DNA of 64,000 nucleotides from an uncultured delta proteobacterium (GTDB taxonomy: Bacteria; Myxococcota_A; Polyangia; Polyangiales; Polyangiaceae): the NCBI GenBank assembly GCA_963696385.1, contig CAVOKF010000005.1, positions 1,184,001 through 1,248,000 of the forward strand, written 5' to 3'. The first letter of the stretch is position 1, and each line of letters opens with the position of its first letter. The position numbers were made by a program, and so were the translations under genes. Below the pieces are notes generated by a model. That model was not told the DNA's origin. It did not search any database and saw only the letters and a program-made list of their open reading frames with translations. Of this stretch, positions 5,050 through 47,581 are shown piece after piece.

Positions 5050-8000
5050 TTACTGCAGGCAGGGGTTGCATCCGTTGCCTTGCGCGCAGTTGAGGATCTG
5101 GTTGGCGATGCCCGACGGGTTTGCGCCGGTCGTGTCGGTGTAGTTGTTGATGATGTCGTTCGCGTCGGTCTGCGGGAACGTGAAGCCGGCGACTTCCGGG
5201 GCCAAGCAGGCCCCGTTGACGTTTGCCCCGCGAGACGAGCAGGCCGTTGGGCCCACTTGGTTGAACCCGCTGACTCCACAATAGCAGAACGTATCGCCCT
5301 GCGCGCTGGCGGCGCACTGCTGACCGGTGGCGCCGGTCATGCAATCGAGGGCTCCGAGGCACGCCGAGACCGTGCTGACCGTCGCCCCGCTGCCATTGGT
5401 GAACGTGGTGGAGCTGCCGACGAAGCCCGCCGTTCCAATGTCGTCGCATTCGCGGTTTCGAACACCATGGATCGGATCGTCGAGGCAGGACCCTGCGACA
5501 AGGCAGCTCAGGCAGTTGCCGGTCAGGGTGGGGGAACCGGCGTAATCAGGCCCTGCGGTCAACACGCTGCCCGAGGCGATGTCGAGCTGCACGAACGCTG
5601 CTTCGGTCCGCGAGCAGACTCCGCTGGAGCGGTTGGGGCAGGTGATGCAATTCGTCTCACCCGCTGTGGTGCAAGCCGTCAGAGGCGACGCGTTGCCCGG
5701 ACCATCCCCGCCGGCTTCAACGTGGGCCGAGTCGAGTCCGGCGTCGACTGTTGTCGCGTCGAGGCCCGCGTCGACTGCGGTCGCGTCGACGACGGTCGCG
5801 TCAGCGACGCTCGAGTCCGCGATGCCCGCGTCGAGGCCGCCCTCGCTGGCCGATCCGTCGATCGCGCCCCCATCGTCGGTGGACCCGCCGCCCGCTGCGG
5901 GCTCGTACGTTCCAACGCACGCGCGGACGTTGACGCTCGCCGCCGGAAAGGGCTGGCACACGGGGCCGGAGTAAACGAACGTGGCCGTCGCGTTGGTCGT
6001 CGCGGGGCACGCCGGATCGGAGGTCGAGCTGACCAGCTCGGGCAGCGCCTGGATGTTGGGCAAGACCTGTATCGGCGGCGCGGGTTGAATCCCGAACGCG
6101 TCTAGGGGCTGGATGGCGATGTTCAGGGTCGCGGACGCAGTTCCCGCGTTGGCCATCGGGATCGAAAAGCCGCTCGTGCTGTCGGCTGCGTAGAATGGCC
6201 CTTGTGAGTCGGAATCGGGCCCACCGCCCTGCGGCAGCGATAGAACGGCACCATTGAGTGTCCATGAAATCGGGACTGTGAAATCGGTTGCCGGCAAGCT
6301 GGCGATGTCGATGATCAATTCGTCCGCGTAGGGCGCCGATCCGGGAAGCACACCCTGGCCGGGGCTGACGGGCTTCGGATTGACGACGATGGTCGCCACG
6401 CCATTGGGCGCCAACATCCCAGAGCCCGAGTCTGCGAACGTGTACCAGGTGCCCGCCGAGAGGCGGATCGTGTAGGGCAGCTGTTGGTTGGTCGAATTCG
6501 TGAGGGTCACGGACTGCCCGCCGGGAGGAGATCCGCCGCAGTCGGTCGTGGGGAATACGAGGCTCCCCGAAATGGTTGCGACCGGGCTCGCATTGGAGGA
6601 ACCGGAGAAATCGATGGTGGGCGTCATCCATTGACTCGGCAGGGCCGCGCAGAAAGCGTCGGTCGCGCTCACTTGCAGTTGTCCCTGGTCGGTCCAGTTT
6701 CCGCTGGCGGAGGGCGCAGAGAATTGACCGACGAGCGCGGTCACGCTGGCCGGCGGCACGGTCGTGGGGTTGCTTTGCAAGCCGAAGATGCCTTGTGTCG
6801 TAAGCCCCTGCAGCGTCACGGTCGCCGGCGCGTTGCCCGTATTGCGGACCGATGTGGAGAAGGTGCCGATCGAACCGGCCCCAACCGTTCCGAAATTCCA
6901 TGTGGTCGACAACGGCGTGTCGGCAATGACCGCGCCGCGCGCCTGCATGGCGAGCGGGACGACGTGCGGGGTATCGCCGGCCGCGTCGGTCATGATGGTG
7001 AGCCGGTCGGTGAATGCCGACACGTTGTTCGGATCGGAAACTGCCGGAATGGCCGAGGGGACGACCGTGATGGTGGCCGAGCCGCCAATCGCGATCGCGG
7101 TCGTCGGCACCCCGGAGATCGCAAAGGGCGAGTTCGACCCCTCGCTAAGAGTGACGGAAGTCACGTTGAACGGCTGATTGCCTGCATTCGAGATCGTCAG
7201 CGTCTGAGTCGTTCCCGTTGAACCGCAGTTGACGAGACCGTAGGGATCCCCTGGTTGCCCGAATGCGAGCGTCGAGGCCGAAAGGGAAACGGATCCTGCG
7301 GTGCCCGTTCCGCTCAAGACAATGGCGCCGGGCAGTCCGGCGCATACCGGGTCCGACGTGACGACTGAAAGGGTCGCCGGATCGGCTCCCATGCTCGTTG
7401 GATCGAAGGTGACGGTCTCGGTCGCCGCACTGCCGGCTGCGAGGTTGCTTGCCGGCTGAGAGCCTGAGTAGGCCGCTGCGCCCGCGCCCACGCATGCGAA
7501 CTGGACATTGGCATCCGACGACCCGGGGTTGGCACCGTTGGTCACCGTGAAGGTTTGGCTGAGGCTCGTGTCGAGTGGGACCTGACCGAAGCGCAGAGTC
7601 GAGACGGAGACGGACAATTGATCGCCCAGAGGGACCTCGCTCAAGTTCACGACGTGAGGCGGATCCAGCGGGACATCCGTCGTTACCACCAGTTGCGCCG
7701 CAAGCGCAGCCGGGTTCGGATTCGGCGCGGGGGAAGCGACGGCGGTTGCGGTCACCATCACGGTGGAGCTCGCCCCAGGAGGCAAGAGTCCGGGTGGCGT
7801 ACTGGTCGTTGCGCTGTAGATGGCGGCTCCGGGCCCCGTGATTCCGCCCAGCGTCCAAGTGAGGTCGGCCGTTCCATTGTTGGATACGACGAATGTCTGC
7901 GATCCGGGGGCCGGGCCTCCACAGGTGGCCGGAAAGGTCAAGAGCGTCGGGGTCACGATCGGGCCGCCGCCGATGGCACTTCCGGAAAGCGGCAGGGGCG

Positions 8001-9627
8001 CAGGCAGCACCTGGCAGATCACTGTGGTGGAAGCGACCGTCAATGCCAACGAGCCCGTGGTGGCGCCGCCGTGGACAGGACGGAACGAGATCGACTCGTC
8101 CTGCTCACTGGGTGCGGCGCCGCTGGCCTGCGCGGCAATGGTGAAGTTCGGTGTCGAAACGCTGAATGCGGACGCGACGCCCGAATCGTTCGTTATGCCC
8201 CCACCGTCGGGTAGAACGCCGCTGCCACTTTCGGTTGCCACCACTGTGATGTTCGCGGAGGCGTTTCCGGCATTCGTAATTCCGAAACTCTGTGGAGGGG
8301 TCGACTGAAGAAGGATGCCCGCAGAGCCGAAGTTGCCAAAGCTGCTCGCGTTCAGGGTATCGAATGCGAGCACTGCCCCTTCGGGCTCCTCCGTCAGCGT
8401 GAGTGAAGTGCCCGCGGTAGAAGGGTCTGCATCCGTGTGGATGACGACCGTTGCGCTCACGGGATTGAGGGATACGGATGGCGTCGTGGACGACGGGGCC
8501 GCAACGGCGGGCGCTGTAAACTGGATCGCGAGAGCGCCGCCGCTCGGCGCAATGACCGATCCCACGGCCGCGTTGGTCCCGAACCCCCCCATGCCGCTCG
8601 TGTCGACCGCCGTGATGCGGGCGGCGGTCGTCCCGCCGTTCGTCAGGGTCACGGTTTGCGGCACCGGTGCCGCACCGCCGCACGGGGTGAGCCCGAAGTC
8701 GAGGGTGCCGCTGCTCGGCCAGCCCGTAAGGACGCCGCTCGCGGTACTGCCCGTGAAGGTAACTTGACTAAGGCTCGAACCGCAGACGACACCGGTCGCG
8801 GTGATGAGCGCGCTCGCGATGACCGGGGCGCTTCCGGTAGGCGTGAACACCGCGGTTGGACTCGCGGTTTCGCCCGGGTTCAGTGAAAATTCCACCCCCG
8901 CATCGGCTTGTTCCGCGAACGCGATGCTCGCGACCGGAGCGATGCTGAAGGTCCCGGGGGCGTTGCCGGTGTTTGCCAACTGCAGCGCGAGCGGCGGCGC
9001 GGCGACGCCGATCTCGCTGGAAGCAAAGGTGTATTCAGACGTCCCCGTGAGGGTTGCACCGGTGGGTGTCACCGAGAGCGCGACCGCCAGGCTCGTGTCG
9101 TTCGGATCGTTCGTGAAGAGCGACAGCGAGCCCGTGATCGGCGAGCCCGCAGTCGCCGAAGCCGGCACGTTTGCGGTAACGGTCAAAGCGCCCGACGCGC
9201 CAGCGGCGAGCGTCAAGGAACTTGGGCTGACGGCGAACGTTGGGCCCGTCTCCGTGACCGATACGGCAAGGACAGAGCCGCCTGTGTTCGTGACGGTCAG
9301 GGTCTCGGTGACTTGGGGCGTTCCGCAGCCGACTTCCCCGAAATCGATGGTGTTGGCACTCAGCGACACGAGCGGAGAGGCAGCGGATCCCGCGTCCCTG
9401 CTGCCGACCGTCGTGGCGTCAGGCGCAACGGCTGCGTCACTCGCATCGGGGGTGGATGAACCGTCTGCGGAGCGGGAGGCCTCTCCGCCTGCATCCGATA
9501 GGGCCGAGACCGGGCCGCCGTCCGGCACGGGCGAAGCGTTGTCGTCGCCCGAGCAGCCGGCAACGAAGCCGACACTGCCAAGTGCCAAAAGAAGGCTCGC
9601 GCGGGTGTAGCTCGATTGAAGGCTCAT
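5050..9627 (-). CDS. Very large lipoprotein with tandem ASH/choice-of-anchor-D-type Ig-like repeats and a Cys-rich C-terminal domain
   Basis: Lipobox VAGC, about 10 repeats of the pattern (L/I)xFG...(T/S)xTxxNxG, a DAG-rich linker, then the ~205-aa Cys-rich domain ending CNPCLQ. Start ATG 9627. Confidence 0.8.
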   Translation of the reverse strand: MSLQSSYTRASLLLALGSVGFVAGCSGDDNASPVPDGGPVSALSDAGGEASRSADGSSTPDASDAAVAPDATTVGSRDAGSAASPLVSLSANTIDFGEVGCGTPQVTETLTVTNTGGSVLAVSVTETGPTFAVSPSSLTLAAGASGALTVTANVPASATAGSPITGSLSLFTNDPNDTSLAVALSVTPTGATLTGTSEYTFASSEIGVAAPPLALQLANTGNAPGTFSIAPVASIAFAEQADAGVEFSLNPGETASPTAVFTPTGSAPVIASALITATGVVCGSSLSQVTFTGSTASGVLTGWPSSGTLDFGLTPCGGAAPVPQTVTLTNGGTTAARITAVDTSGMGGFGTNAAVGSVIAPSGGALAIQFTAPAVAAPSSTTPSVSLNPVSATVVIHTDADPSTAGTSLTLTEEPEGAVLAFDTLNASSFGNFGSAGILLQSTPPQSFGITNAGNASANITVVATESGSGVLPDGGGITNDSGVASAFSVSTPNFTIAAQASGAAPSEQDESISFRPVHGGATTGSLALTVASTTVICQVLPAPLPLSGSAIGGGPIVTPTLLTFPATCGGPAPGSQTFVVSNNGTADLTWTLGGITGPGAAIYSATTSTPPGLLPPGASSTVMVTATAVASPAPNPNPAALAAQLVVTTDVPLDPPHVVNLSEVPLGDQLSVSVSTLRFGQVPLDTSLSQTFTVTNGANPGSSDANVQFACVGAGAAAYSGSQPASNLAAGSAATETVTFDPTSMGADPATLSVVTSDPVCAGLPGAIVLSGTGTAGSVSLSASTLAFGQPGDPYGLVNCGSTGTTQTLTISNAGNQPFNVTSVTLSEGSNSPFAISGVPTTAIAIGGSATITVVPSAIPAVSDPNNVSAFTDRLTIMTDAAGDTPHVVPLAMQARGAVIADTPLSTTWNFGTVGAGSIGTFSTSVRNTGNAPATVTLQGLTTQGIFGLQSNPTTVPPASVTALVGQFSAPSASGNWTDQGQLQVSATDAFCAALPSQWMTPTIDFSGSSNASPVATISGSLVFPTTDCGGSPPGGQSVTLTNSTNQQLPYTIRLSAGTWYTFADSGSGMLAPNGVATIVVNPKPVSPGQGVLPGSAPYADELIIDIASLPATDFTVPISWTLNGAVLSLPQGGGPDSDSQGPFYAADSTSGFSIPMANAGTASATLNIAIQPLDAFGIQPAPPIQVLPNIQALPELVSSTSDPACPATTNATATFVYSGPVCQPFPAASVNVRACVGTYEPAAGGGSTDDGGAIDGSASEGGLDAGIADSSVADATVVDATAVDAGLDATTVDAGLDSAHVEAGGDGPGNASPLTACTTAGETNCITCPNRSSGVCSRTEAAFVQLDIASGSVLTAGPDYAGSPTLTGNCLSCLVAGSCLDDPIHGVRNRECDDIGTAGFVGSSTTFTNGSGATVSTVSACLGALDCMTGATGQQCAASAQGDTFCYCGVSGFNQVGPTACSSRGANVNGACLAPEVAGFTFPQTDANDIINNYTDTTGANPSGIANQILNCAQGNGCNPCLQ

Positions 9628-9962: not shown

Positions 9963-11615
9963 CTACTGCAGGCAAGAGGTGCAGTTGTTGCCTGCCGCGC
10001 AGTTCAGCAGCTGGTTGGCGATACCGGACGGGTTCGCGCCCGTCGTGTCGGTGTAGTTGTTGATGATGTCGTTCGCGTCGGTCTGGGCGTAGGTGAAGCC
10101 CGCGACCTCCGGGCCCAAGCACGAGCCGTTGACGTCCGCTCCGCGTGAGGAGCAGCTGGTCGGACCGCCACCGTTGAATCCGCCCGTTCCGCAGTAGCAG
10201 TACGTGTCGCCCTGCGCGTTGGCGGCGCACTGTTGGCCGGTCGACCCGACCATGCAAGCCAGGGTATTTTCGCACGCCGTCACCGTGCTGCCGGTGACTC
10301 CGCTGCCGTTGATAAAGGTCGTGGACGACGTCGTGAGGCCCGTCGTGCCGAGGTCTTCGCACTCACGACCCTTGACGCCGTGAGCCGGATTGTCGAGGCA
10401 GGAGGCCGCGACGAGGCAGCTGAGGCAATCGCCGGTCAGGCTCGCCGTGGCGTAATCGGGCCCGTTGGCCGTTACGGCGCCCGAGGCGATGTCGAGGCTG
10501 ACGAAATCCGCTTCGGTCGTCGTGCAGACGCCGTTCGTCCGGTTCGGGCAGCTCACGCAATTCGTCTGGCCCACGGCGGTGCAGGGAACAGGCGGAGGGG
10601 CCTTGCAGACCCCGCTGGTGCAGTTGGGCGCGGTCGAGGGGCATACGTTTCCGCAGCTGCCGCAGTTGTTCACGTCGGTCGTGAAGTTGACGCAGACTGA
10701 ACCGGCATCGGTCGTACAAGCGTTCGGGGTGGGCGCGAAGCAGGCGATGCCTCCGCCGGCCTCGCAGACCACCGTGGCCGTGTACTGCTGGAAGTTACCC
10801 GGCGCCGGGGTGCAGACCTGACCGGCATCGACGCCGCCCGGGGCCGCGCCAATGAGGCCCACGGTGAGAGTAACCGACGCGCTGCCTGTGAACGAACCGC
10901 AATTGAACGTCGCGTTCGCCGAATTCGGGTTGGTGATCGTCGCGCCGGAGGCCGTCGTGCTCCATACGATCGTCTCCGTGCCGCCGCTGCCCGTCGTCGA
11001 CGCCGAGCTGAGCTGTGCGACCTCCGGGGGCAGGACTTCGGCGGGGCTGATGGCGAAAGACGAGATGCCCGGGCATACGTAGGGGCTCTGGTTCACAAGG
11101 ACGACGCTCGCGTCGACATAAAGAGAGCCGGTGTCGAGGATCGTTGCGACGGACGAATCCGCCGGGACTGTGCACGTGACGACGATGGTCGCGCTGCTGA
11201 CCGCGCCCGCCGTGACCGTGATGCCGGACGACGTGCCCGAGCACGGGTCGCCGTTGCTGTCGGATCCGCTGATCGAGAGGATATACGTGCCCGCGTTGAT
11301 CCCGCCGGCGACGAATTCGACGGATTGAGCTTCGTGGCCCGCGTCGTCCGTGATCTGCACCGTGCCCGTGTAGGGCGCCGCAGCATCGTTCGTTGAGCTC
11401 GAGATGGTCCAGCCGAGCGCATTGACGTGGACGCCGTTGCCGATCGTCAGCGTCGCGCCGATCGAGCCGACGGTGGCCTGGCCCGCAGGGCCGTTCGTGG
11501 CGCCGACGGTGTTGCCGCCCGACGTGCCCGTGCTGCCCTGTTGGCTCGAACACGCGGCGAGCGATATCGCCGCCACGGCAAGACCGGCAGCGATTGTGTT
11601 ACGAATGAGTTTCAT
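9963..11615 (-). CDS. Cys-rich lipoprotein with Ig-like N-terminal half, Stig1-like repeat and the shared Cys-rich C-terminal domain
   Basis: GGAGG RBS, lipobox LAAC, CVNFTTDVNNCGSCGNVC repeat, C-terminal domain ending CTSCLQ. Confidence 0.85.
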   Translation of the reverse strand: MKLIRNTIAAGLAVAAISLAACSSQQGSTGTSGGNTVGATNGPAGQATVGSIGATLTIGNGVHVNALGWTISSSTNDAAAPYTGTVQITDDAGHEAQSVEFVAGGINAGTYILSISGSDSNGDPCSGTSSGITVTAGAVSSATIVVTCTVPADSSVATILDTGSLYVDASVVLVNQSPYVCPGISSFAISPAEVLPPEVAQLSSASTTGSGGTETIVWSTTASGATITNPNSANATFNCGSFTGSASVTLTVGLIGAAPGGVDAGQVCTPAPGNFQQYTATVVCEAGGGIACFAPTPNACTTDAGSVCVNFTTDVNNCGSCGNVCPSTAPNCTSGVCKAPPPVPCTAVGQTNCVSCPNRTNGVCTTTEADFVSLDIASGAVTANGPDYATASLTGDCLSCLVAASCLDNPAHGVKGRECEDLGTTGLTTSSTTFINGSGVTGSTVTACENTLACMVGSTGQQCAANAQGDTYCYCGTGGFNGGGPTSCSSRGADVNGSCLGPEVAGFTYAQTDANDIINNYTDTTGANPSGIANQLLNCAAGNNCTSCLQ

Positions 11616-11795: not shown

Positions 11796-11828
11796 CCGAT
11801 TTTCGGAATCAGTCTACGATTCTCGGAG
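11796..11828. promoter_or_regulatory. Putative tandem activator-binding site CCGATTTTCGGAATCA...ACGATTCTCGGAG
   Basis: 16 bp identical to 26330-26345. Dyad CCGA-N3-TCGG with a degenerate second copy 20 bp away. Confidence 0.6.
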
Positions 11829-11928: not shown

Positions 11929-14900
11929 ATGCGACGGGGCGGAAGCTTCATAATCGGTCTCGTCGTCGCTCTCATCGCCGTCGCGAGTTGCGCACAGGAA
12001 GAGTATCCGGAGGCGTTGTGGTCGGCCCAGCATCCGGGCGCGACAGCAGCCGACGGGGGGGGCACGAGTGTCGCGGCCGCGCCCGCGGCTGGGCCGCTCG
12101 ATTGCCGCCAGGCCCAGGCGGAGTCGCTCCCCGCGCGGCTGGTCGCGATGTCGGCGAACGCGCCTCCGAGCGCCACGGTCGTTCTGGTGTCCGATCTCTA
12201 TCAGGAGTTCGTCGAAGTCTGTGGGGCGTGCCACGGCCCTTCGGTCGATCCTCCAGGCAATGGAGGATTCCAGATTATCCAGTCGACCGACTTTTCTTCC
12301 CTCATGACCGCATCGGTGCTCCAACACGTCACGAACTCGGTCTGTCCCACTGCAGAGGATCCCACCAATCCAAACGATCCCATGCCGCCCTGCGCGAGCC
12401 CGGACGGCGCAACCTATTCGCAAAGGCTGGATAGCGATCCCATCAAACAGTTTGCGGAACTGGTTGGAGAATGGTTGCAGGCCGGTAGCCCGAGCTCCTT
12501 CAGCCCCGGCGGCGATGCCGGCCCCGGCGGGGAAGCCGGTGCCGCCCAGGATGCGGGCGCCGCGAGCGCGTACGTCCTCACGCCGCAATCTGGAAACGCG
12601 ATGACCAACATCGGCAACTGCATCCCCAGTGCGGCGATGGTGGGCGTCGACGTTGAGAAAGCCACGGCGCTGGACGCGATGTTTGCAAGCCTGACTGCCC
12701 AGGCGAGCGGTTCGGCGTTGCAGGTGATCGGTCTTCCGCAGAACCTATCCGACACCGACCTATTTACTCTCGACAGCCAGGCCCTCGCCCAAGAGGGGGT
12801 TTTGGCGTACGCCCCCGGCTACCCGCTCTGGTCCGACAACGCCGGCAAATTGCGCCACGTACGGGTGCCGCACGGGCAGTCCATCCGCTTCAACAAGACG
12901 ACCCAGCAGTTCGAGATCCCGCCCAACACTCGATTTTACAAAACTTTTATGAAACAAATCATCGATACCGACGGCAGCTATCGGTACCGCAAAGTCGAGA
13001 CACGATTGATCGTCTCGCGCCCGGATCAGAACAACCCGGATGGAACCGCGGTGGCGCAGAAGGCGCTCTTCGGCAGCTACCTATGGAACGCCGACGAAAC
13101 CGAGGCAGTGCTCGTCCAAACGCCGCTGAACGATGGAGAACCGTTCGCGGACACGCTGTTGCTTTACAACACCGACGAGCCGTTGGCCGCGGACATCTTG
13201 TCCGGTCAGCCGGCCGACCCGCAAGAGCAGCTGCTCGAGAACGGGGCGGCACGTCATTACGCGATCCCATCGAGCCCGCGCTGCATCGAGTGCCACATGG
13301 GTAGCGCAAGCCAGGCCTTCGTGCTCGGCTTCACGCCGCTGCAGATCAACCGCCGGCCGGTCGGTGTCGGCGGGGTCATCGAGGCCACGGGCCCCGACGA
13401 GTTGACGCAGCTTCAGCGATTCATCGACGCCGGGATCATCACGGGCATCGATACGATCGCCGATGTTCTGCCGCTCGAGCAGTCGCAGGGCGCGCGCACG
13501 CCGCGCAACGAGTACGAGCTGACGGCTCAAGGCTACGTGCTCGGCAATTGCTCGCACTGCCACAATCCGCGCGGGTATCCCAGCGTCGAGAATCCTGTGC
13601 TGACGACCGTGCTCGATTTTCTTCCGGGGCCCAAGGGAGGCGTATTTCAGTTTCCCCTCGAGAGCTACAGCCCGCGTATCGGTCGGGGGCTCACGGGGAC
13701 GACGCCCATCCCGTACATCACGCCGTCACTCGTCGATCTCCCGAAGCTCGACCCCAATTCCGGCGGACAGGCCGCAGACTGGTTCGTCAGCGCAGGCGCG
13801 CAAGGGACGAACACGGTGGATTACGCAATCTACGCTCCTTGGCGAAGTATCATTTATCGCAACGTCGATGCGGCTTTTGCCTATACGGACGACTTCGCGC
13901 TGTTTCCGCATATGCCCATGAACACGCCGGGATACGATCCGCGCGCCAAACAGATCCTCGGCGACTGGATGGTCAGCATCCCCTCTGTGCGAAAGCAACC
14001 GGAGATTCCCGAGTACGCGTATCGGACCGACGGTTCCGCGTCGGACAACATCAACGGCCCCGTCGTGGACACGACGCCTCAACCGTATGTCGAAGTGCTT
14101 CCGGGGGCGCCGGCGTACAACAGCGCCGTCATCGCCGCGCAGCAGCGGTTGGCCATCCTTCATACGGGGGTCAACCAAGCGGTCGCGTTGGCGCCGGGCG
14201 GCGTCGTCTACTCGAAGTATGCGGATCGCGGTCAAACCGGTGACATCATCGATCCCGAGGTGACGGCGGACCCCATCTGCCACCCGATCCCCGTTGGCGA
14301 ACCGGACTTGTACTATACGCCGCTGCCCGAGCATCCGGACTGGGTGGTCACCGATCTCACCGAACCGCCCGGCGCGTGGGCGCCGAGGCAACCGAATTGG
14401 CCCCAAGTGTTGGTCGAGGGGCAGGTTCCTCCGCAGGGCACGGCGTGCACGGGACTGACCGGTGAGCAAGCCGCTTACGCCGACCAGATCGATGCCGTGC
14501 AATTGCTGCCGAGCGTCACCCTCGACCAAGTGCAAGCTTACGCGACGGCCAAACAGCCGTTCGGATTGTGGCAACAGCAGGCCTCGTGCAATTTCTCTTC
14601 GCAGCCTACGGTGAGCTCGTTCACCGGGGCCCAACGGCCGCATTGGATGGACGTCACGAATCCACCCCCGGACGCTCCCGTCTACATGGAGACACCCGGG
14701 GAGGCCATTTTCAAAATGATCTGCATCAACTGCCATGGTCCCGACGGCGCGGCGGACGGCCGAATGGCACAAAACCTCGCGACGATGACCGGTGGCAACG
14801 CGCGTGTCGCGGACTTTCGCGACGGTCTGTTTGGGCCGGTGGGTGCGGCGGAAGACATGAGCAATCGCCATGCGGTGTTCGGGATCACAGCCTTGCAAGC

Positions 14901-26329: not shown

Positions 26330-26363
26330 CCGATTTTCGGAATCAAGCCACTGATTATCGGAG
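26330..26363. promoter_or_regulatory. Putative tandem activator-binding site CCGATTTTCGGAATCA...CTGATTATCGGAG
   Basis: 16 bp identical to 11796-11811, with a second degenerate copy 21 bp away. Confidence 0.6.
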
Positions 26364-28125: not shown

Positions 28126-28144
28126 GAAAAGGACTGCCTGTATA

Positions 28145-29350
28145 TCACTGCAAGCAGGTCGTGCACCCATTGCCCTGCGCGCAATTGAGGATTTGGTTCG
28201 CGATTCCGGACGGATTCGATCCGGTCGTATCGGTGTAGTTGTTGATGATGTCGTTCGCGTCCGACTGCGGGAAGGTGAAACCAGCGACCTCGGCCATCAA
28301 GCACGGCCCGTCGACGCTCGCGCCGTTGGACGAGCAGGTGGTTGGACCGAGGCCGGCGAATCCGCCCGTGCCGCAATAGCAGAATGTCTCGCCCTGAGCA
28401 TTGGCGGCGCACTGCTGCCCGGTCGGACCCAGCACGCACAGTAGCGCGCCAATGCAGGCCGAAACGCTGCCGACGCTGGCTCCGCTGCCGTTCGTGAATG
28501 TGGCCGACGTCATGCTAAATGTCGGGGTTCCAATATCGTCGCACTCGCGATTCTTGATGCCGTGCTGGGGATTGTCGACGCATGAGCTAGCGACGAGGCA
28601 GCTGAAGCAACTGCCGGTCGAACTCGGCGAACCAGCGTAGTCCGGTCCGCTGCCGGTGACCGCGCCCGCGCCGATGTCGAGCGCAACGAACGCGGCCTCG
28701 GTCTCGGTGCAGACACCGCTGCTGCGGTTCGGGCAGCTCACGCAGTTCGTTTGGCCGGCCGACGTGCAGGGCACGAGAGATCCCGCCTCGCTCGTCCCGC
28801 TCGGGCCTGTTTCGCTCGCGCTCGCGTCGGTCGCCCCGGTTTCGGGGGCGCCCTCGCTGGCCGCAGAGTCGGGCGAAGGCGTCGCCCCAACGTCGATCGT
28901 GCCGTCGGAAAGCGTCGAATCCATTTCCCCATCGGAGATCGCGGAGTCGCTGGTGGCATCTTCACCGCCGGCCTCCCGTAGCCCCGCATCGCGCGCGCCG
29001 GCATCGGGGATCGCCATCTCTTCGACCGTCGCGTCTTCGCGAGATGCGTTCGGAGAGCCGTCCGGCTCGGCGCTCATTGCGGGATTCGTGGTCGCCGCTG
29101 CGGCGCCCTCGTTCTGCGCGCCGGTTGCGTCTTGCCCGGACGCCGCGGTCGCCGCGTCCAACGCGCTCACCGCGCCGGCGCCGGACGACCCGTCATCGGA
29201 CTCGCCAGTATCGGAATTGCCCGGCAGGGCCGAGCTGTCGCCGACGTCACTGCAGCCGCCGGTCGCCGTCGCCATCACGAGCGCCGCCATGAATCCGCCA
29301 AGGCTCGTGTGCCACGAACGCGGTGCCACGGAGGATTGCGTGTGACTCAC
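28145..29350 (-). CDS. Lipoprotein-like protein: acidic low-complexity stalk plus shared Cys-rich C-terminal domain
   Basis: GTGA overlap with the upstream stop, TGGC lipobox-like motif, C-terminal domain ending CTTCLQ closely similar to those of the 5050 and 9963 genes. Confidence 0.8.
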   Translation of the reverse strand: MSHTQSSVAPRSWHTSLGGFMAALVMATATGGCSDVGDSSALPGNSDTGESDDGSSGAGAVSALDAATAASGQDATGAQNEGAAAATTNPAMSAEPDGSPNASREDATVEEMAIPDAGARDAGLREAGGEDATSDSAISDGEMDSTLSDGTIDVGATPSPDSAASEGAPETGATDASASETGPSGTSEAGSLVPCTSAGQTNCVSCPNRSSGVCTETEAAFVALDIGAGAVTGSGPDYAGSPSSTGSCFSCLVASSCVDNPQHGIKNRECDDIGTPTFSMTSATFTNGSGASVGSVSACIGALLCVLGPTGQQCAANAQGETFCYCGTGGFAGLGPTTCSSNGASVDGPCLMAEVAGFTFPQSDANDIINNYTDTTGSNPSGIANQILNCAQGNGCTTCLQ

Positions 29351-30255
29351 AGCCCACCGTCCAAGCAATCATTTTGCTGAGCGACGTTGAAAACCTGATT
29401 CAAGCGTGATCCGCAAAAGCCCATCACGGTCGGGTCGTTGTCTTCATAATTGTTGATCGCGTCGAGGATGGTGGCGGAGGTCTGCTCGAGACTCGCCAGC
29501 TCGTCGGTCGCGCACGGGCCGGGCGGATGGGGATCCGACGCGCACACGGTTGGATCCGTTTCGGACCCGCAAAGGCAACTGATGACGTTGGTGCCGCACC
29601 CGCTCGCCATGATGCATTCGTAAAGTTCGAGACACAGCGAGTACCGGGGTTCGGCAGCGCCCGGCCCCTGGACCGCCGTTCCGGCGTCTTCGCACCAATT
29701 GCAGGGCGGAAACTGGATATAATCGAGAGAGGCCTTCGGCGCGGTCGCGGTCTCGCACTCGTCGGCAGCCGTACTGCCGAGCCATCCGTATGTTGCGCAC
29801 GCGCTGCCGTCCATGGCTGGAATCGCGGATCCGTCAGCGGCGAAGTCGGACGGGATCTGCACACTCTCACGGCCCAACGCAACCAGATCTCCGCTGCGTT
29901 CCGGAATGAAGGGCGGGCAAGTCGGCCACGGGTAACCGGCCTCGGCGGCATCTGCGGTCGCGGACGGCGGGTTCACCTCGGGAAGAGTCTGATCGGCGTA
30001 GAAAATGGCGACGTCGAACGTCAAACTCGCATCTTCGTCGTCGCCGGTCGTTGCATCCGAGGCGTCCACGGCGAGATCCTCATTCGCGTCCTGCTGCTGT
30101 TGGACCGGCAGGTCTTCATGCCCGTTCGTGCCCCCGCAAGCGAAGGCGACGAAGCCAACGATTGCGCGAAGGGCCATAACGGCCATCGATACGCGAAAAG
30201 CGGCGCCGATGCGCGCCGCTCGAGAGAGTGACCGGTGGACGATGGTGCTGTCCAT
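29347..30255 (-). CDS. Cys-rich lipoprotein with a divergent copy of the shared C-terminal domain
   Basis: Lipobox AFAC. CLCG...C...GPC...E...DAINNYED...G...NQVFN aligns with CYCG...C...NGxC...E...DIINNYTD...GIANQILN. Confidence 0.7.
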   Translation of the reverse strand: MDSTIVHRSLSRAARIGAAFRVSMAVMALRAIVGFVAFACGGTNGHEDLPVQQQQDANEDLAVDASDATTGDDEDASLTFDVAIFYADQTLPEVNPPSATADAAEAGYPWPTCPPFIPERSGDLVALGRESVQIPSDFAADGSAIPAMDGSACATYGWLGSTAADECETATAPKASLDYIQFPPCNWCEDAGTAVQGPGAAEPRYSLCLELYECIMASGCGTNVISCLCGSETDPTVCASDPHPPGPCATDELASLEQTSATILDAINNYEDNDPTVMGFCGSRLNQVFNVAQQNDCLDGGL

Positions 30256-30368
30256 GGTGAGGCAGGGGGCCTTATGCCAGCGTGGTGAGATATGAAATGC
30301 GACGTTTTGGCAACACCTGGTCGCTTCAGCGACGGCGGCAAACCTCGCACCCCCCTTGCCTAGGCGGA

Positions 30369-32255
30369 TCACGGCGCCTCCGGATGGGAGCCGCACCAGC
30401 GCCGCCACATCCATCGGAACGCCGACTCGAGATGGCGAGCGAAGCGAGGGCCGTCCATCAAAGCGGAGCGCTCCATGCGTTGTCGCAGCTCCGCCCGGAG
30501 GGACCCGAGTCGAGCCAGATCGCTCGCCAGCGCAACCGCGGCGTCGACGTATTGTTCCGCCGTCGTAGCGACAAGATCATCCAGTCCGAGGTTACGGGCG
30601 TAGCAGAGTCCCGCGCGTCCGAGCGCCGTAGGGCCCACCCGCGTGATGACCGGCACGCCCATCCAGAACGCGTCCAGGCTCGTCGTGTGCCCGTTGACCG
30701 GAAACGTGTCGAGGCAAATATCGATCCGCTTGTACACGGAGAGATACTCGGCTCGCGGCTGATAACCGACGAACTCGATCCGGTCGGGATCGACGCCGGC
30801 TCGGGAGAAGGCGTCGCGCACACGCGTGCGGGATTCGCCCGGATAGGCCAAGACAACCATGTGCGCGCCTTCGACCGCCGCGAGCACTCGGGCCCAAAGC
30901 GCAAACACTTCGGCGCTCGTCTTGCCGAAATTGTTCAAGCAGCCGAACGTGATCCATCGGTTGCGGAGCGCGGGCGGCGCGTTCACCTCAGGCACTCGCG
31001 TGAGCGGGTCGTAACACCAGAACGAGTCGGGCAAGCGAACCGAGTGCTCCGTGTACCAGCCGCTGACGTCGATTTCGGGAGGGTCCAGGAAAACGTCGGT
31101 AATCCGGTAGTCCATCGCTTCAAGGCCCGTCGTTCCTGGATACGCGAGCCACGCCAGTTGCACGGGCGCAGGCTTCGAAGCAAAGAGCGCCAAGCGATTC
31201 TCGCCCATGTGCATCGTCAGGTCGACCAAGAGGTCGATGCGGTCGCCGCGAATGGCCTCGTTCGCCTCCGCGTCGGTCCGCGATCGGATGTCACGAAACT
31301 CGTCCGATAGGCCGCGAATCCGGCGGGTCCGTTCGTCGGGACTGGCGACAAATGAATAGCAGAATACTTCGACGGCGCGGCGGTCGTGATGCTCGAGCAG
31401 GGGCACGAAGAACAGAGCCTGGCAATGCTCCCGGAAGTCCGGCGAGACGTACCCCACCCGAAGGCGTCGATCGGGGTCGCGGTCGTTCGTATGTGGGCGA
31501 ACGCGGGCGGTCTTGGGCCCGACCTGACGCTCGCTCCATCGAATCGCCTCTTGCGCGACGGATCGCGCGTCCTGGGTGGGGTCCCACGACAGCGCGAACA
31601 CGAGATTGCTGTGGGCGATTCGGTCGTCGGGCCGGCAGTCGAGAGCCCGCCGGAACGAGGCGATAGCCTCTTCGACGCGGCCCTGCTCCTTGAGCACGAC
31701 ACCGAGCTCGTTGTGGGCGCCCGCGAAGCTCGGATCGATTTGGAGTGCGCGTTCGCAGGTGTCCCGAGCCTCGTCCAGTCGGTGGACTCGAGAGAGCGCT
31801 CCCGCCAAGCTCATGTGGGCGGCAAGCAGCCCCGGCTTGAGCGCCAGCGCTGTCTTGAAGGCGGCGATGGCGTCGTCGAGACGGCCCTCCCCGTAGAGTG
31901 TGAGGCCCAACGTGTAATGGGCTTCCGCCAGACCCGGGTTGAGCGCAACCGCCCGATGCAAGCTCGCCATTGCCTGAGCCACGTGACCCAATCGCCGGTA
32001 AGCCTCTCCGAGGTTTGCGAAGAGGACGGCCTGTTCCGGTGCGCGGCCAATGGCGCGCAGGAGGACCTCGATCGCGTCTTCGTTGCGCCCCGTCTCGAGA
32101 AGAACCGAGCCGAGCAGATGCAGCGTCACGAGGTGATTCGGATCCTTCGTGAGGATCTGTCGATAAAGCTTCTCGGCGGTCGCGACATCTTTGTCACGAT
32201 GGTGCTGCATCGCGCGAGCCACCCTTTTTTGGAGGGCCGGACGGTGAAGCGCCAT
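30369..32255 (-). CDS. TPR-containing O-GlcNAc transferase / SPINDLY-family glycosyltransferase (GT41)
   Basis: N-terminal TPR array. Motifs RLRVGYVSPDFREH, IDLLVDL, PAPVQLAWLAYPGTTG, FGCLNNFGK and DICLDTFPVNGHTTSLDAFWMGVPVIT. Confidence 0.92.
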   Translation of the reverse strand: MALHRPALQKRVARAMQHHRDKDVATAEKLYRQILTKDPNHLVTLHLLGSVLLETGRNEDAIEVLLRAIGRAPEQAVLFANLGEAYRRLGHVAQAMASLHRAVALNPGLAEAHYTLGLTLYGEGRLDDAIAAFKTALALKPGLLAAHMSLAGALSRVHRLDEARDTCERALQIDPSFAGAHNELGVVLKEQGRVEEAIASFRRALDCRPDDRIAHSNLVFALSWDPTQDARSVAQEAIRWSERQVGPKTARVRPHTNDRDPDRRLRVGYVSPDFREHCQALFFVPLLEHHDRRAVEVFCYSFVASPDERTRRIRGLSDEFRDIRSRTDAEANEAIRGDRIDLLVDLTMHMGENRLALFASKPAPVQLAWLAYPGTTGLEAMDYRITDVFLDPPEIDVSGWYTEHSVRLPDSFWCYDPLTRVPEVNAPPALRNRWITFGCLNNFGKTSAEVFALWARVLAAVEGAHMVVLAYPGESRTRVRDAFSRAGVDPDRIEFVGYQPRAEYLSVYKRIDICLDTFPVNGHTTSLDAFWMGVPVITRVGPTALGRAGLCYARNLGLDDLVATTAEQYVDAAVALASDLARLGSLRAELRQRMERSALMDGPRFARHLESAFRWMWRRWCGSHPEAP

Positions 32256-32342: not shown

Positions 32343-33452
32343 TCACAGCCCGTATTTGCGCACCTTCTCGTAAAGCGTGGACACCGCGATCCCCAGCGTG
32401 CGAGCGGCAGCCATCTTGTTGCCGTTGGCAACGAGCAGGGTCTGGCGAATCGCGGCGCGTTCGATGCGAGCCAGAGTCTGCCCGGCAAGCGGCAGATCCT
32501 CGACCCATGAGGTGTCGTCGTTGGCCGGCGTCAGCAGACGCAGGTGGTGCGTATCGAGGAAGCTCGCGTCCGGATCGACGAATGCCACGGCGCATGCGAG
32601 GACATTCTTGAGTTCACGCACGTTGCCGGGCCACGAATGCATTCGGAGTACCCCGAACGCGGCATCGGACAAGCGCAGCTCCGGGCGGCCCAGATCCTTC
32701 AGGAGCGATTCGATGAGCTGTGGCAGGTCGTCGAGGCGCTGGCGAAGCGGAGGTACCTGGACGACCGCCACGGCGAGCCTGAAAAAGAGGTCTTCTCGAA
32801 AACGGCCGGCTGCCACGTCGGCGCGGAGGTCTCGGTTGGTCGCCGCGACAATCCGAACGTCGAGCGGACGCTCGGCCCGGCCGCCGACGCGTCGCACTTT
32901 TCGGCTCTCGAGGGCACGCAACAATCGCGACTGGAGATCGAGCGGCAACTCGCCGATCTCGTCGAGAAAGAGCGTGCCGCCATGCGCCCGCTCGAAAGCG
33001 CCGGGGTGGCCTGCAACGGCACCGGTGAACGCGCCCCGCTCGTGCCCGAGCAGTTCGCTCTCCGCCAGATTGGCGGCGACCGAGCCGCAGTCGAAAACGA
33101 CCAGGGGGCCGTGCGCCCGCGTGCTCTGTTGGTGGATGGCGTGGGCAAGAATGTCTTTGCCGGCTCCCGTTTCCCCGACGAGCGTGATGCTGACGTCGGT
33201 CGCCGCAAATCGGTCGAGTACTTCGAACACCTCGTGCATCGCGGCCGAACGAGCCACGACCTGCCCGAAGCGCCGAACGTTGCCAATGTGCACCGATTGG
33301 AGTCCCAGCTTGGCGACTCCCGAATTGGGCCTGGACCATTCGAAGGCCGAGATGGGCAGCTTGGCCGGCGAAGGTGGCACAATCGCGTCCACGCCTGGCC
33401 TGTCCTTCGGATCGATGCGTCGAGTCTCGGCCAGATTTGTCGGATGCATCAT
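32343..33452 (-). CDS. Sigma-54-dependent enhancer-binding protein (AAA+ and Fis-type HTH) with no recognisable sensory domain
   Basis: Walker A GETGAGKD, GAFTGA loop, Walker B LFLDEIGE, WPGNVRELKN and C-terminal AARTLGIAVSTLYEKV. Confidence 0.95.
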   Translation of the reverse strand: MMHPTNLAETRRIDPKDRPGVDAIVPPSPAKLPISAFEWSRPNSGVAKLGLQSVHIGNVRRFGQVVARSAAMHEVFEVLDRFAATDVSITLVGETGAGKDILAHAIHQQSTRAHGPLVVFDCGSVAANLAESELLGHERGAFTGAVAGHPGAFERAHGGTLFLDEIGELPLDLQSRLLRALESRKVRRVGGRAERPLDVRIVAATNRDLRADVAAGRFREDLFFRLAVAVVQVPPLRQRLDDLPQLIESLLKDLGRPELRLSDAAFGVLRMHSWPGNVRELKNVLACAVAFVDPDASFLDTHHLRLLTPANDDTSWVEDLPLAGQTLARIERAAIRQTLLVANGNKMAAARTLGIAVSTLYEKVRKYGL

Positions 33453-33813
33453 GCGAAGTCTTCCTCGACCGTGCGCAGGAGCGCGCCGCGATCGAGGCCC
33501 CTTGTACCGAAGTATCGGCGGGCCGATTGCCACGACTGCGAAACATTCCGAAGGCTCGTTGGATCCTATGGAAATCGCCTGGAAAATCGAACCTTTCGCA
33601 TGCAATCTTCCGCAGATTGCTGCGCGGTGAGTCGACGGATCGCTCGGGTGCGAACGGGATTGCCGGTGCGACGGTCGTCGTGGAACCCCCCGAGCTTCGA
33701 GCGACGCGAAACGTCACAAACTGTTCACGCGCCCCCCGCGCCGGCACGCCTAGCCTCGCGCGCTCGTGCGCACTTCCGAGGGCCATGACACGGCGAGAGG
33801 GTCGGGCCTGTCG

Positions 33814-35110
33814 ATGAGCGCGAAGGCTCTCGCCTTTGCCGGATGCCTCGGAGCACTCTTGCTTGGCGCCGACAAGACCGCGTCTGCCCAAATGACGCCT
33901 TGCGGCAGCGCCGGGTCGAGCCTGCCCCTGCTTTACGTGGTCGGGCCCAGCACGACCGAGGGTTCCGGCGTCTTGCCGCTGGTACAGGTCGTGGCGAACG
34001 CCGTTTCCGCATGGGCGCTCGTCGTCTACGTGCCAACCCCTCCGTGCAGCGCGCTTCAAAATCTGGCGATGGCCACCCCCGGCAACACGGCGGCTCTCAC
34101 CTTGAATCCCACCGGTAGCACGACGGCCTGCATGGCCGATGCCGTGGCACCCGACCTGGCGGTCTCCGACGTGTATCCGGACACCTGTGTGCAGAACTTG
34201 GGCATCGCCCCGCTGACGAGCTCCGAACTCGACTTTTTGGGGCCGGTCCAAACCTCTACTATCGTGACGGCCTCATCGTCGTCGGAAAAAGTCATCAGCG
34301 CAGATGCGGCCTATGTCGTGTTCGGCTTCGGCGCGGCCAACTATGTCGTCAGTCCGTGGAGTGACCCGGCTTCGATCTTCGTTCCCGACCAGCAGTCCGG
34401 TCCCTTGAACTTGATCGGCGCAACCATTGGTCTGTCGCCCTCCAATTGGGCCGGCGCCGCGAATTCGACGATTACGAGTACGAGCAACCTGACGAAGGCG
34501 CTCAAAGCCGATGCCACGCCCAGTGCAACGATTGGCATCTTGCCGGGAACCGTCGCGTCGCAGACGTCCGGAATCCGCGTTCTCGCCTATCAGCACTCCA
34601 CCCAGCAGTGCGGGTTCTTGCCCGATTCGGACTCCCTACACTTCGACAAAATCTACGTGCGCCAAGGCCGCTACACGCTTTGGGGGCCGACGCATTTCCG
34701 TCGTCCACGTCGACGCCGCGGGCACGGTGCTCGATCACACCGGCCAGCCGAGCGCCGTGCTCCGCGCGGCCCTCGACGCACTGACCGCCAGCGCCCCGGG
34801 CGGAGCGCAAAGCGGTGCGGACGTGGACTCAAGCGTCTACGCAGAGGGCGACGCCGGAACACCTGCGATTGACCCTCAAAGTTTCACGCGGGCCGTTGCG
34901 AGTGCGTCGTTCGTCCCGTGGTGCGCGATGCAGGTCTTGCGCACTGCGGATGGCGCCGCCGAGGCCTCGTACCAGGCTCCGGCCCCGTGCGGATGCTTCT
35001 TCGAGAGTGCTCTCGGAGCGACGACGTCGCTCTGTCCGACGTGCGGATCGAACGCTGACTGCACCGGAACCGCCGGGACGTGCCGTTACGGCTACTGCGA
35101 GGACCAGTGA
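33814..35110 (+). pseudogene. Secreted PBP-like Cys-rich protein interrupted by a +1 frameshift near 34698-34699 (pseudogene or assembly error)
   Basis: Signal peptide ASA|Q. Reads ...GRYTLWGPTHF and continues in another frame as VVHVDAAG...CGCFFE...CRYGYCEDQ if one C of CAT TTC C GTC is removed. Confidence 0.7.
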
Positions 35111-35439: not shown

Positions 35440-35488
35440 AACGGGTCGCGGGTTGTACGTGCGGGGCTTCGTTCACGATTCGGGGCCT

Positions 35489-36091
35489 TTAGGGCGCCTT
35501 GAGCCGACAATCCCGCCCCATGGATGGGTGTGTAGCCTGGGTCATCGCGAGCCACGCCAGACCTGGAATCGCGTAAGCCATCCCCGGTGGTGCCACAAGC
35601 GCACGGCGCGCGAGCGACAGGGCGCCGCCGACCCAAGCACCCAACGGGATGACACCGGCGTCGGACAGAAAGTCGAAAACCGGTACCGCGATGACGGCGG
35701 CGACGATCCCGACGGCGAGCGATACGGACCCGAGCAGGCAGCGAACGGTGCGTGGCGGCCATGCGGCGGCCAGCGACAGAAAGGTGGCCAGTTGAAGATA
35801 GCCGACCCGCCGGAGATCGATGATCCCCGCATGCCGAACGGGGCCGTCCGGGAGATCCTGTTTGACATCGATGACCCCCCGCCACTCGGGCTGCCGTTCG
35901 CTCGGCCGCGCAGACCGGAGCGTGAAGGAGACATTCGACGTGACGGAGACCGCATCCGCCAATGCGGTTGCCGCCATGCCCACCGAGTCGACGAAGGCTC
36001 GGCCGAGACCCGGCCATGGCGCAATGAGGATCGCGAGCACCACCCCGAAGCGTCCAAGCGAAGCCGCGAGCGATCGCCTAGCCGGCAACAC
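35489..36091 (-). CDS. Exosortase H-associated-like membrane protein
   Basis: Multi-TM protein directly downstream of the exosortase. N-terminal TM ending PWPG, periplasmic strand region, then GYLQLATFLSLAAAWP. Start uncertain. Confidence 0.55.
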   Translation of the reverse strand: MLPARRSLAASLGRFGVVLAILIAPWPGLGRAFVDSVGMAATALADAVSVTSNVSFTLRSARPSERQPEWRGVIDVKQDLPDGPVRHAGIIDLRRVGYLQLATFLSLAAAWPPRTVRCLLGSVSLAVGIVAAVIAVPVFDFLSDAGVIPLGAWVGGALSLARRALVAPPGMAYAIPGLAWLAMTQATHPSMGRDCRLKAP

Positions 36092-36664
36092 GTTCGCTGA
36101 CTCCGTCGCCCCCGGGCGTCTCAGTCTGGGTGCCCATCCAGCGGAGGCATACGACGAAATCGAACGCCGCGAACACAATCATGAGCAGCGGCCACAAGTC
36201 GTAATGCAAAAATGCGAATGCCGAATAGACGAAGACCCCTACCCAATACAGAGCGAACAGGCGAATGAGGTTAAAGGCGACCAGCGCGCAAAGTCCGACG
36301 ACCAGGGCAACCATTTTCGCCACCACGGTGCCGAGACGGCCAAGACGGCGGCGGAAAAAAGGATGTTGGTCTCCATGGCGTCGCAGCTTTTCACGATCTG
36401 CATCGAGAAGCGCCCGGAGACCGTGTTTCCGTGCGCCGACACGCTCGGATCGAACATCGCGATGGGGACACGCACCATGCGCGTGTACATCCGCAGATAT
36501 TCGGCGGTCCAGCGCTCGATGGTGGACTCACTGGCGCGGGGAAAGTAATAGACGCTCAATAGGCATGCAGCGATGACCGTGAACGCGAGCACGAACCTGG
36601 CTCGACCGTCCTCGGCGAAAGACCACGGACGCGGTCCGACCGCGTTCCGCGAGCGACGGCGCAT
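36078..36664 (-). pseudogene. xrtH: Exosortase (XrtH-like) split by a 1-nt frameshift near 36314-36317 (pseudogene or assembly error)
   Basis: FSMQIVKSCDAME (catalytic Cys) in one frame, FNLIRL (Arg) and FLHYDLWP (His) in the next. One extra A in CGA AAA TGG restores WWRKMVALVVG. Confidence 0.75.

Positions 36665-46504: not shown

Positions 46505-47581
<1,077 letters not shown>

Follow-up and report, generated by a model that had tools for sequence, protein, structure and literature searches.

A conserved cluster of PstS-type paralogs, a tetraheme cytochrome and an extra signal peptidase in an uncultured Polyangiaceae lineage

What purpose is served by a run of bacterial genes in which product after product is exported and rich in cysteine? 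The question is raised by a 64-kb stretch of DNA (the window; C5:1184001-1248000) in the 6.94-Mb, eight-contig genome of an uncultured Polyangiaceae lineage from soil and peat, where exported proteins encoded between 5 and 40 kb have 18-34 Cys each and many are also rich in Asn, Ser, Thr and Gly. A preliminary description of this gene cluster proposed that it builds a surface layer, fibre or matrix with the help of its own processing enzymes and a sigma-54 regulon, and added in an aside that the product might be redox-active or bind phosphate or minerals. Every item listed in that description is present in the window, and it is the redox and phosphate part of the aside that the evidence favours. 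We tentatively read the cluster as a lineage-restricted, co-inherited envelope module that links the binding of an oxyanion, probably phosphate, to c-type cytochromes. Coordinates below are positions within the window (G+C 63-70%), in which genes were picked by third-position G+C (GC3) frame bias and then checked against Pfam and NCBIfam; lipoboxes were judged by eye.

The four-gene core

The part of the cluster that recurs in relatives comprises four genes. On the plus strand, the gene for a lipoprotein-type c cytochrome of 1277 amino acids (aa) with four CxxCH motifs (11929-15762) is followed by those for an extra signal peptidase I of the S26 family (15807-17102; 431 aa) and for paralog A (17599-20292; 897 aa), one of three Cys-rich secreted proteins of PstS type. 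Paralogs B (20474-23116; 880 aa) and C (23437-26130; 897 aa) are on the minus strand, as is the fourth core gene, which encodes a TPR membrane protein (26599-28170) and was assigned by Pfam and by linkage.

We compared the window with nine loci from eight genomes of the same genus, taking 40-60 kb around each paralog homolog and using all proteins of the window as tblastn queries. In eight of the nine loci the genes for cytochrome, peptidase, paralog(s) and TPR protein lie side by side, those for cytochrome, peptidase and paralog being co-directional each time; the ninth (G008b) has a lone second paralog. Between the same genomes the cytochrome is better conserved than the paralogs, at 48-66% identity (96% in the closest genome) compared with ~30-45% (~80-94% in the closest genome). 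A more distant set comprised 27 loci from other metagenome-assembled genomes titled Polyangiaceae, Myxococcales, Polyangiales and the like. Seventeen of these keep cytochrome, peptidase and paralog together, down to 25-30% paralog identity, and 14 of the 17 have the TPR protein as well; in another six the paralog stands alone, mostly on short contigs or as a second copy. The genes surrounding the core, annotated with Pfam in four distant loci, are wholly different there.

Presence and absence were also scored across 30 other genomes of the genus. Of these, 19 have the cytochrome and 18 the paralog as well, with the two genes sharing contigs; 11 have neither, and the one genome with the cytochrome alone is an assembly of 950 contigs flagged as unpublished (G010). 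In a sample of 300 other genomes of the phylum, the cytochrome was not found in 299 and was found only in the single genome of the same genus that the sample held. The adjacency of the core at 25-30% paralog identity amid changed surroundings, together with the matched presence and absence, argues that the core is these four genes and that the rest is a shell peculiar to the sub-lineage of the window. The homologs are therefore not scattered but co-localised, as the preliminary description had supposed, and their co-localisation and shared pattern of paralog and cytochrome presence within the genus mark a coherent, co-inherited unit.

Such a pattern might also arise if there were no single system at all and the cytochrome-peptidase pair, binding-protein genes, lipoproteins and regulators were merely syntenic in a narrow clade. 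The distribution is that of one genus plus a few relatives, whose genomes are not independent; several of the parts come and go, and lone paralogs occur off the cluster, as in G008b and the six distant loci. However, mere synteny does not explain why the core remains adjacent at such low paralog identity while its surroundings change fully, why presence and absence are matched over 30 genomes, why the order of cytochrome, peptidase and paralog is co-directional wherever the same-genus loci have the core, or why one upstream box (described below) precedes both the paralogs and the lipoprotein gene beside the cytochrome. We therefore regard it as improbable.

Two further observations concern the cluster as a whole. 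Its G+C content (0.63-0.66 over 6000-40000) is slightly below that of its flanks (0.67-0.70), and only some two in three genomes within the genus carry it, which fits an accessory island, yet there are no flanking mobility genes. In one distant locus, L050, an arsC-arsR-acr3-arsC-dsbD set (L050:11672-15760, encoding a low-molecular-weight phosphatase/ArsC-like protein, ArsR, an Acr3-type SBF carrier, a second ArsC-like protein and a DsbD-thioredoxin protein) sits inside the cluster between the PstS-type gene and the peptidase-cytochrome pair. Since these genes occur in no other locus, an arsenic link was dropped as a one-off.

Binding proteins, cytochrome and peptidase

The three paralogs are 80-86% identical to one another, have 32-33 Cys each and are the only three copies in the genome. 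They had been described as three proteins of ~890 aa with the PstS fold; the number is borne out, and the PstS-type assignment is supported by profile alignments. A profile of 248 columns was built from 25 PF12849 (PBP_like_2) matches in genomes of the same order and compared with the profile of the paralogs. Paralog residues 20-300 align to columns 8-153 (P 7.8e-5) and residues 590-760 to columns 156-231 (P 9.5e-6), the two alignments being colinear, whereas control comparisons with a reversed profile and with unrelated profiles gave P values of 0.16-0.87. The cluster-linked distant homolog in L050 passes the PF12849 threshold (29.2 vs. 27 bits), another scores 25.3 bits, and weak, sub-threshold N-terminal matches to PBP_like_2 occur in 3 of 42 and 4 of 54 other family members. 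A search of the ESM Atlas returned the proteins' own families, with a PBP_like_2 cluster at rank 14 (score 0.88), which we treat as a lead only. Each paralog is thus predicted to be one PstS-type domain split by a Cys-rich insertion. The insertion of ~340 aa follows the SGT loop (300-430 aa in 63 family members), and a C-terminal extension of ~150 aa bears the Myxococcus-type Cys-rich repeat DUF4215, which is found in 20 of 42 family members. Copy number varies from one to three across genomes, and the paralogs differ in mosaic variable patches.

The motifs of the paralogs fall in the same order as in the PstS profile: GSDT corresponds to GSdT, GGSGAG to gGSgtG, MSK to ASR, RRDDASGT to R...SGT, PCSLGYAG to aIGY and EYQIARKLY to YPLaR. 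We take these to be the phosphate-site and hallmark motifs of PstS, with residue roles assumed from the E. coli protein. Across 42 sequences the GSDT, GGSGxG, R-x3-SGT, aIGY-like and YPLxR-like motifs are either invariant or conserved to at least 90%, and R-x3-SGT is present in 147 of 210 members of the wider family. This conservation of the ligand site argues that the paralogs have retained binding of a small, tetrahedral oxyanion. A word-indexed search returned at least 254 homologs under the names 'hypothetical' or 'cysteine-rich repeat protein' and, in a single case, 'ABC-type phosphate transport system substrate-binding protein', and a profile search returned 1347 clusters at 50% identity (E <= 0.001). 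The analysis therefore defines a large family without earlier annotation, that of PstS-type binding proteins with a big Cys-rich insertion.

Domain fusions are seen in this family and in that of the shared lipoprotein domain described below (proteins P0033, P0100 and P0377). In one protein the PstS-type region is followed by a C-terminal Phi_1 (phosphate-induced protein 1) domain (E 2.4e-10), in another it is combined with a sub-threshold phytase-like stretch (E 0.009), and the third is a GH16 fusion of the lipoprotein domain. A relationship between the Phi_1 domain and the PstS part itself was ruled out by profile comparison (P 0.1-0.44).

By its conserved motifs, the predicted product of 11929-15762 is a multiheme c-type cytochrome. 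In an alignment of 35 sequences, 11 of the 12 Cys and His positions of the four CxxCH motifs are invariant and the other is at least 90% conserved, as is the N-terminal lipobox Cys, so that the four heme motifs behind the earlier description of this protein stand. In searches for solved relatives the fourth heme lies in the only recognised class-I cytochrome c domain. Residues ~270-397 match the start of TIGR03806 (E 1.3e-28), although at 100.1 bits against a cut-off of 313.3. At least 484 homologs were found, all of them either without a name or called 'mono/diheme cytochrome c family protein'.

Two exported proteins encoded on the minus strand beyond the shell each have a single heme motif and are associated with the cluster. 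A protein of 407 aa (38552-39775) keeps its N-terminal CxPCH in 10 of 10 sequences, and the product of 37954-38628 keeps CxLCH in 6 of 6, the window included in both counts. The 407-aa protein is possibly a barrel like those of the phosphate-selective porins (Porin_O_P, PF07396), the match being a weak one (Pfam E 0.092; end-to-end hhalign P 0.01 and probability 4%, with controls at 0.43 and 0.75). It occurs in 18 of the 19 genomes of the genus that bear the cytochrome, G010 included. The other protein ends in GCG, a transmembrane helix and RRR, a tail that appears MYXO-CTERM-like by the definition in PMC11980579. The genome contains a second pair of heme-motif genes (C7:822609-824757), in which the 407-aa protein is 49% identical. 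In relatives a YceI-like gene usually follows the heme-motif pair; here the place is taken by a lipocalin gene (39992-40690).

The signal peptidase is well supported, with both PF10502 (101.4 vs. 22.9 bits) and TIGR02227 (86.5 vs. 47 bits) above their cut-offs and the motifs SMLPTL and KRVIGLPGD, presumably the Ser and Lys catalytic motifs, read by eye. Its gene begins at a GTG codon (15807) 44 nucleotides past the cytochrome stop, and the protein has an N-terminal extension with multiple transmembrane segments. It is an extra copy, as had been claimed, being one of six S26 matches in the genome. Its identity to the nearest S26 paralog of this genome is only 33%, compared with 40-89% to the cluster-linked peptidases of other genomes, which indicates that this peptidase lineage travels with the cluster. 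Because the cytochrome and the lipoproteins bear lipoboxes, the likely type I substrates within the core would be the paralogs and the TPR protein. Conservation of the paralog leader (0.62) is on a par with that of the protein core (0.52-0.73). The TPR protein starts with a signal peptide and ends in a transmembrane helix with an Arg-rich tail, which is conserved in relatives. Of its two internal hydrophobic segments, one resembles a second signal and ends in Ala-Arg-Ala, so that internal cleavage by the cluster peptidase is conceivable.

Regulation and the accessory shell

The preliminary description had noted one upstream box shared by three promoters; we find it at four. The palindromic box, TTCCG-N2-4-ATCGG, occurs seven times in the window compared with 1.0 in shuffled sequences and 1.04 per 64 kb genome-wide, and three of the genome's six copies of TTCCGAA(A)ATCGG are in the cluster. 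Four copies are intergenic and co-oriented with the genes they precede, namely the lipoprotein gene at 9963-11615 (TTCCGAAAATCGG, 11796-11808, minus strand), paralog A (17391-17403, plus strand), paralog B (23162-23173, minus strand) and paralog C (26330-26342, minus strand), each with a second half-site ~21 bp upstream. Four relatives have the box at the same intergenic places, in one of them as a perfect 15-bp palindrome. Strong terminator hairpins follow paralog C (23376-23343) and the 9963-11615 gene (9926-9899), which points to separate transcription units that share one operator.

Two regulators are encoded nearby. The product of 32343-33605 (minus strand) is a sigma-54-dependent activator (PF00158, 211 bits) with AAA+ and HTH_8 domains and ~150 N-terminal residues without assignment. 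Four of the nine same-genus loci have a close ortholog (at least 69% identical), and orthologs of 59-73% identity lie near the cluster in several loci. However, no consistent -24/-12 sites (GG-N10-GC) were found across nine loci; one weak site, TGGCACGGCGTCGGCA, precedes paralog C and its ortholog. Of the sigma-54 regulon proposed earlier, the activator is present, while consistent sigma-54 promoters were not found in these loci. An OmpR/PhoB-family winged-helix regulator is encoded at 36991-37800 (plus strand). The window copy has no detectable receiver domain, whereas homologs in two compact clusters (L049 and L058) have one.

Four lipoproteins encoded on the minus strand share one C-terminal domain, as previously described: a giant one (5050-9627) with choice-of-anchor-D/HYDIN-type Ig arrays recognised by Pfam and NCBIfam, the product of the monocistronic gene at 9963-11615, and those of 28145-29368 (start codon uncertain) and 29347-30414, the last of which overlaps the downstream gene by 22 nucleotides. 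The domain is 64-66% identical among the first three and diverges to ~30% in the fourth. It is exclusive to the cluster, in that all three of its matches in the genome are here, and in one homolog a copy lies N-terminal to a GH16 glycoside hydrolase. Further on are genes for a TPR and GT41 glycosyltransferase (30369-32255, minus strand; PF13844, 187 vs. 25 bits, with multiple TPR models in its N-terminal part), a small lipoprotein (35110?-35439, plus strand), a membrane protein without family match that would be the exosortase partner (35492-36091, minus strand), and a small exosortase-family protein (~36100-36679, minus strand). The exosortase assignment was made on an intact ortholog that is 72% and 62% identical to the two pieces in the window; it matches TIGR04178 (34.9 vs. 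23 bits) and comes nearest to XrtH, for which it falls below the cut-off (TIGR04177, 70.8 vs. 86 bits).

The exosortase frame is broken near 36313 in the window. However, contigs from four of four short-read runs, belonging to four studies, have one more base at this point, so the break is an assembly error and the gene is intact in the reads. Likewise, the gene for a fourth, distant PBP_like_2-type protein (plus strand) contains one spurious base at 34698 that is missing from the short-read contigs of two of these runs (X1 and X6). Corrected, this gene extends from 33766 to 35110, in agreement with the closest genome, whose ortholog is intact and encodes 451 aa. The gene product aligns to columns 5-245 of the PstS profile (P 4.4e-5). 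Two apparent pseudogenes are thus one-base assembly errors, and the same may hold for others in this long-contig assembly.

The shell varies among relatives. Most of the eight core-bearing same-genus loci have shared-domain lipoproteins; of all nine loci, five have GT41 and three the exosortase. The most distant loci have none of these. By genome, the exosortase was found in only four of nine cluster-bearing genomes examined; this type of exosortase was not found anywhere in the five others, by a search that had no positive control of its own, although the tblastn comparison of the same-genus loci detected the same protein in three other genomes. These lipoproteins, GT41 and the exosortase are lineage-specific accessories and not part of the core, and among the processing enzymes assigned to the system the peptidase alone is core.

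This bears directly on the surface layer, fibre or matrix first proposed, in which the paralogs and shared-domain lipoproteins would be subunits matured by the cluster peptidase, the exosortase and GT41. The many exported proteins of Cys-rich and Asn/Ser/Thr/Gly-rich composition are consistent with such a structure, as are the extra copy of the peptidase, the cluster-exclusive shared domain, which resembles a docking module in its position before GH16, and the MYXO-CTERM-like surface tag on one neighbour. However, the supposed maturation enzymes and the lipoproteins are missing from many versions of the cluster and are therefore dispensable, the window has no polysaccharide genes, and the conserved ligand-site motifs of the paralogs would be superfluous in a purely structural role. 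N-x-S/T sequons in the cluster proteins are not enriched beyond composition, and glycosylation of these proteins was accordingly dropped as a candidate. Nor was an exosortase substrate found among the cluster reading frames of three relatives, and a crude genome scan for transmembrane helices with Arg tails gave 29 candidates with no recurrent non-Cys motif. The paralogs and shared-domain lipoproteins have no MYXO-CTERM tail. With maturation enzymes that the cluster can do without and paralogs of binding-protein character, nothing indicates a layer, fibre or matrix, and we consider one unlikely.

The remaining genes of the window lie around the cluster. Outside the range first described, 1277-3915 (minus strand) encodes a DUF4397 protein and an M10 metallopeptidase that are often co-located with it, the former in seven and the latter in six of the nine same-genus loci. 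Directly downstream of the cluster is a set of genes for DUF4340, ABC_transp_aux and an ABC ATPase (40883-47044, minus strand), which we take to resemble the GldG/GldA gliding-type set; synteny of the DUF4340 gene extends to two relatives. The stretch ~54000-61530 is probably an integrated mobile element: besides a prim-pol gene (55820-56731) and one for a Fic/DOC protein (57223-57876), it has genes for a resolvase-type recombinase (58215-59681) and, abutting tRNA-Asn (61456-61529), for a tyrosine integrase (60231-61520). A search of the window with Rfam returned only a tRNA.

Function and comparison with known systems

How might the core work? Its invariant part is the co-directional string of tetraheme lipoprotein cytochrome, extra signal peptidase I and one to three PstS-type proteins, with the TPR membrane protein adjoining. 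Outside the cytoplasm, the paralogs would bind a tetrahedral oxyanion, phosphate being the simplest candidate; their conserved leader would be cleaved off by the cluster peptidase, which may act on the leader of the TPR protein too. A redox step tied to the ligand or to its mineral carrier may come from the cytochrome, possibly together with its two single-heme-motif neighbours. A regulator of the cluster would act at the box, and the shared-domain lipoproteins, GT41 and the exosortase pair would be add-ons of the sub-lineage to which the window belongs. It is the tight linkage of the binding proteins to a large c cytochrome, heme-motif proteins and a private peptidase that suggests an extracytoplasmic module joining binding to redox chemistry. 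Phosphate is the simplest ligand, although the evidence for it is weak and consists of hints: the PstS type itself, an OmpR/PhoB-family regulator nearby, the possible Porin_O_P-like barrel, the Phi_1 fusion and the phytase-like match.

Several results weigh against this proposal. The window paralogs have no Pfam or NCBIfam match above threshold, and none to PF12849 even at E values up to 10. Sequence searches of the PDB with the paralog profile and with the L050 homolog gave no PstS match, and hhalign of the paralog profile against single sequences (one PstS and the fourth PBP-like protein) gave nothing. The position that we take to be Asp56 of E. coli PstS aligns with Lys or Arg in the paralogs, so the ligand need not be phosphate. 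There is no PstC/PstA permease or PstB ATPase in the locus, where the only ABC genes of the window are of the ABC_transp_aux/DUF4340 type (40.9-47 kb), and the genome has a canonical PBP_like_2 gene elsewhere. Outside the fourth heme domain and the SO2930-like stretch that matches TIGR03806, the cytochrome resembles nothing in the searches made, and its role is a guess. The 407-aa protein also occurs in 2 of the 11 genomes without the cluster and can sit 300 kb away from it. Finally, the linkage is seen in one genus and a few relatives, which do not count as independent cases.

The paralogs might instead belong to a polymorphic surface apparatus for adhesion, recognition or predation, in which duplicated, fast-evolving proteins bind prey or kin while the cytochrome and the peptidase serve in maturation or as accessories. 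Their faster evolution relative to the cytochrome, their variable copy number and mosaic patches and the DUF4215 repeat would all fit, as would the Ig-array and GH16 passengers of the shared domain and the M10 protease nearby in most same-genus loci. However, this leaves the cytochrome-peptidase pair, the tightest-linked and best-conserved part, without explanation; the oxyanion-site motifs suggest a small ligand and not a surface, and the paralogs carry no sorting tag. It appears distinctly doubtful for these reasons. That the PstS-type proteins serve only as sensors, which signal an oxyanion on the outside to the two regulators and the TPR membrane protein and take no part in uptake or redox chemistry, is very unlikely: a sigma-54 activator and an OmpR/PhoB-family regulator do travel with the cluster, no permease is present and binding-protein-dependent sensing of arsenite with a sigma-54 activator is known (AioX/AioS/AioR), but the core has no histidine kinase or other transmitter domain, up to three near-alike sensor copies each with its own boxed promoter would be unusual, and cytochrome and peptidase are again unaccounted for.

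A module that couples oxyanion binding to cytochromes can also be taken further, to a version that we offer as a long shot. In this version the cluster would be a phosphorus-mining machine of peat and soil Polyangiaceae, with an electron path in the envelope for the reductive attack on Fe(III)-bound phosphate and PstS-type receptors for the capture of what is released. The path would run through the tetraheme lipoprotein, the MYXO-CTERM-tagged heme protein and a heme-bearing outer-membrane barrel, and the receptors would be hardened by disulfides, matured by the dedicated peptidase and tethered via the shared-domain lipoproteins. In general terms, it would be a new extracytoplasmic machine coupling oxyanion binding to heme redox chemistry. 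If the linkage does reflect one mechanism, oxyanion (phosphate) capture would be tied to extracytoplasmic redox chemistry, with a bearing on iron-phosphorus coupling in wetlands, and the peptidase would be a Gram-negative case of a signal peptidase dedicated to its substrates. If it does not, what is left is a conserved cluster of unknown function that is clean and open to testing.

We compared the cluster with the systems that it most resembles, and as the preliminary description had suspected, it fits none of those tested: PEP-CTERM/XrtA, Pst and the porin-cytochrome conduits each fail in a defining feature. The paralogs resemble PstS in covering columns 8-231 of the 248-column PBP_like_2 profile with the same motif order and in being exported; that family also includes the secreted DING-type relatives of PstS. 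Unlike PstS, they have the ~340-aa Cys-rich insertion, the ~150-aa extension and 32-33 Cys, and unlike the binding protein of a Pst system they have no PstCAB beside them, their partners being a cytochrome and a signal peptidase. The tapA-sipW-tasA operon of Bacillus likewise places an extra type I signal peptidase beside secreted proteins with a conserved leader. However, the cluster peptidase is of the bacterial S26/TIGR02227 (LepB) type, whereas we take SipW to be of the endoplasmic reticulum/archaeal type, and its neighbours are not amyloid-like fibre subunits.

The company of an exosortase, TPR proteins and a sigma-54 activator recalls the PEP-CTERM/XrtA system, with its TPR lipoprotein PrsT and its sigma-54 regulator PrsR. 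However, the matches are below the cut-offs for PEP_resp_reg (284 vs. 502.6 bits) and PrsT (27-96 vs. 312 bits), no PEP-CTERM tails or exopolysaccharide genes were found, and the exosortase is absent from most cluster-bearing relatives. Porin-cytochrome conduits such as MtrCAB share with the cluster a multiheme lipoprotein cytochrome, and the possible heme-motif barrel and the surface-tagged heme-motif protein would extend the likeness. Yet the hemes here number four, one and one instead of 8-10 per protein, no MtrB/PioB-type model is among the NCBIfam matches listed, and the candidate barrel is loosely linked to the cluster. Over residues ~270-397 the cytochrome is like the diheme family of SO2930 and HNE_0200 (TIGR03806), but it is four times longer, has two further hemes and scores far below the cut-off. 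We know of no function for the SO2930 family, and in the one mention of it in the literature SO2930 is reportedly just listed.

The tail of the 37954-38628 product (GCG, transmembrane helix, RRR) is like those of MYXO-CTERM/myxosortase substrates, and the DUF4215 repeat of the paralogs is like that of the TraA-type Cys-rich repeat proteins (PMC11980579); unlike that system, the window has no myxosortase (CPBP-family) gene. A literature search, with subscription journals outside its coverage, returned no description of the cluster. In one uncultured Polyangiaceae lineage, then, PstS-type proteins come firmly linked with a tetraheme cytochrome and a private peptidase in a core that is part of no described system. 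The parts are of known kinds, namely a PstS-type protein with a large insertion, an extra peptidase linked to its substrates and a multiheme lipoprotein, and it is their combination that is undescribed.

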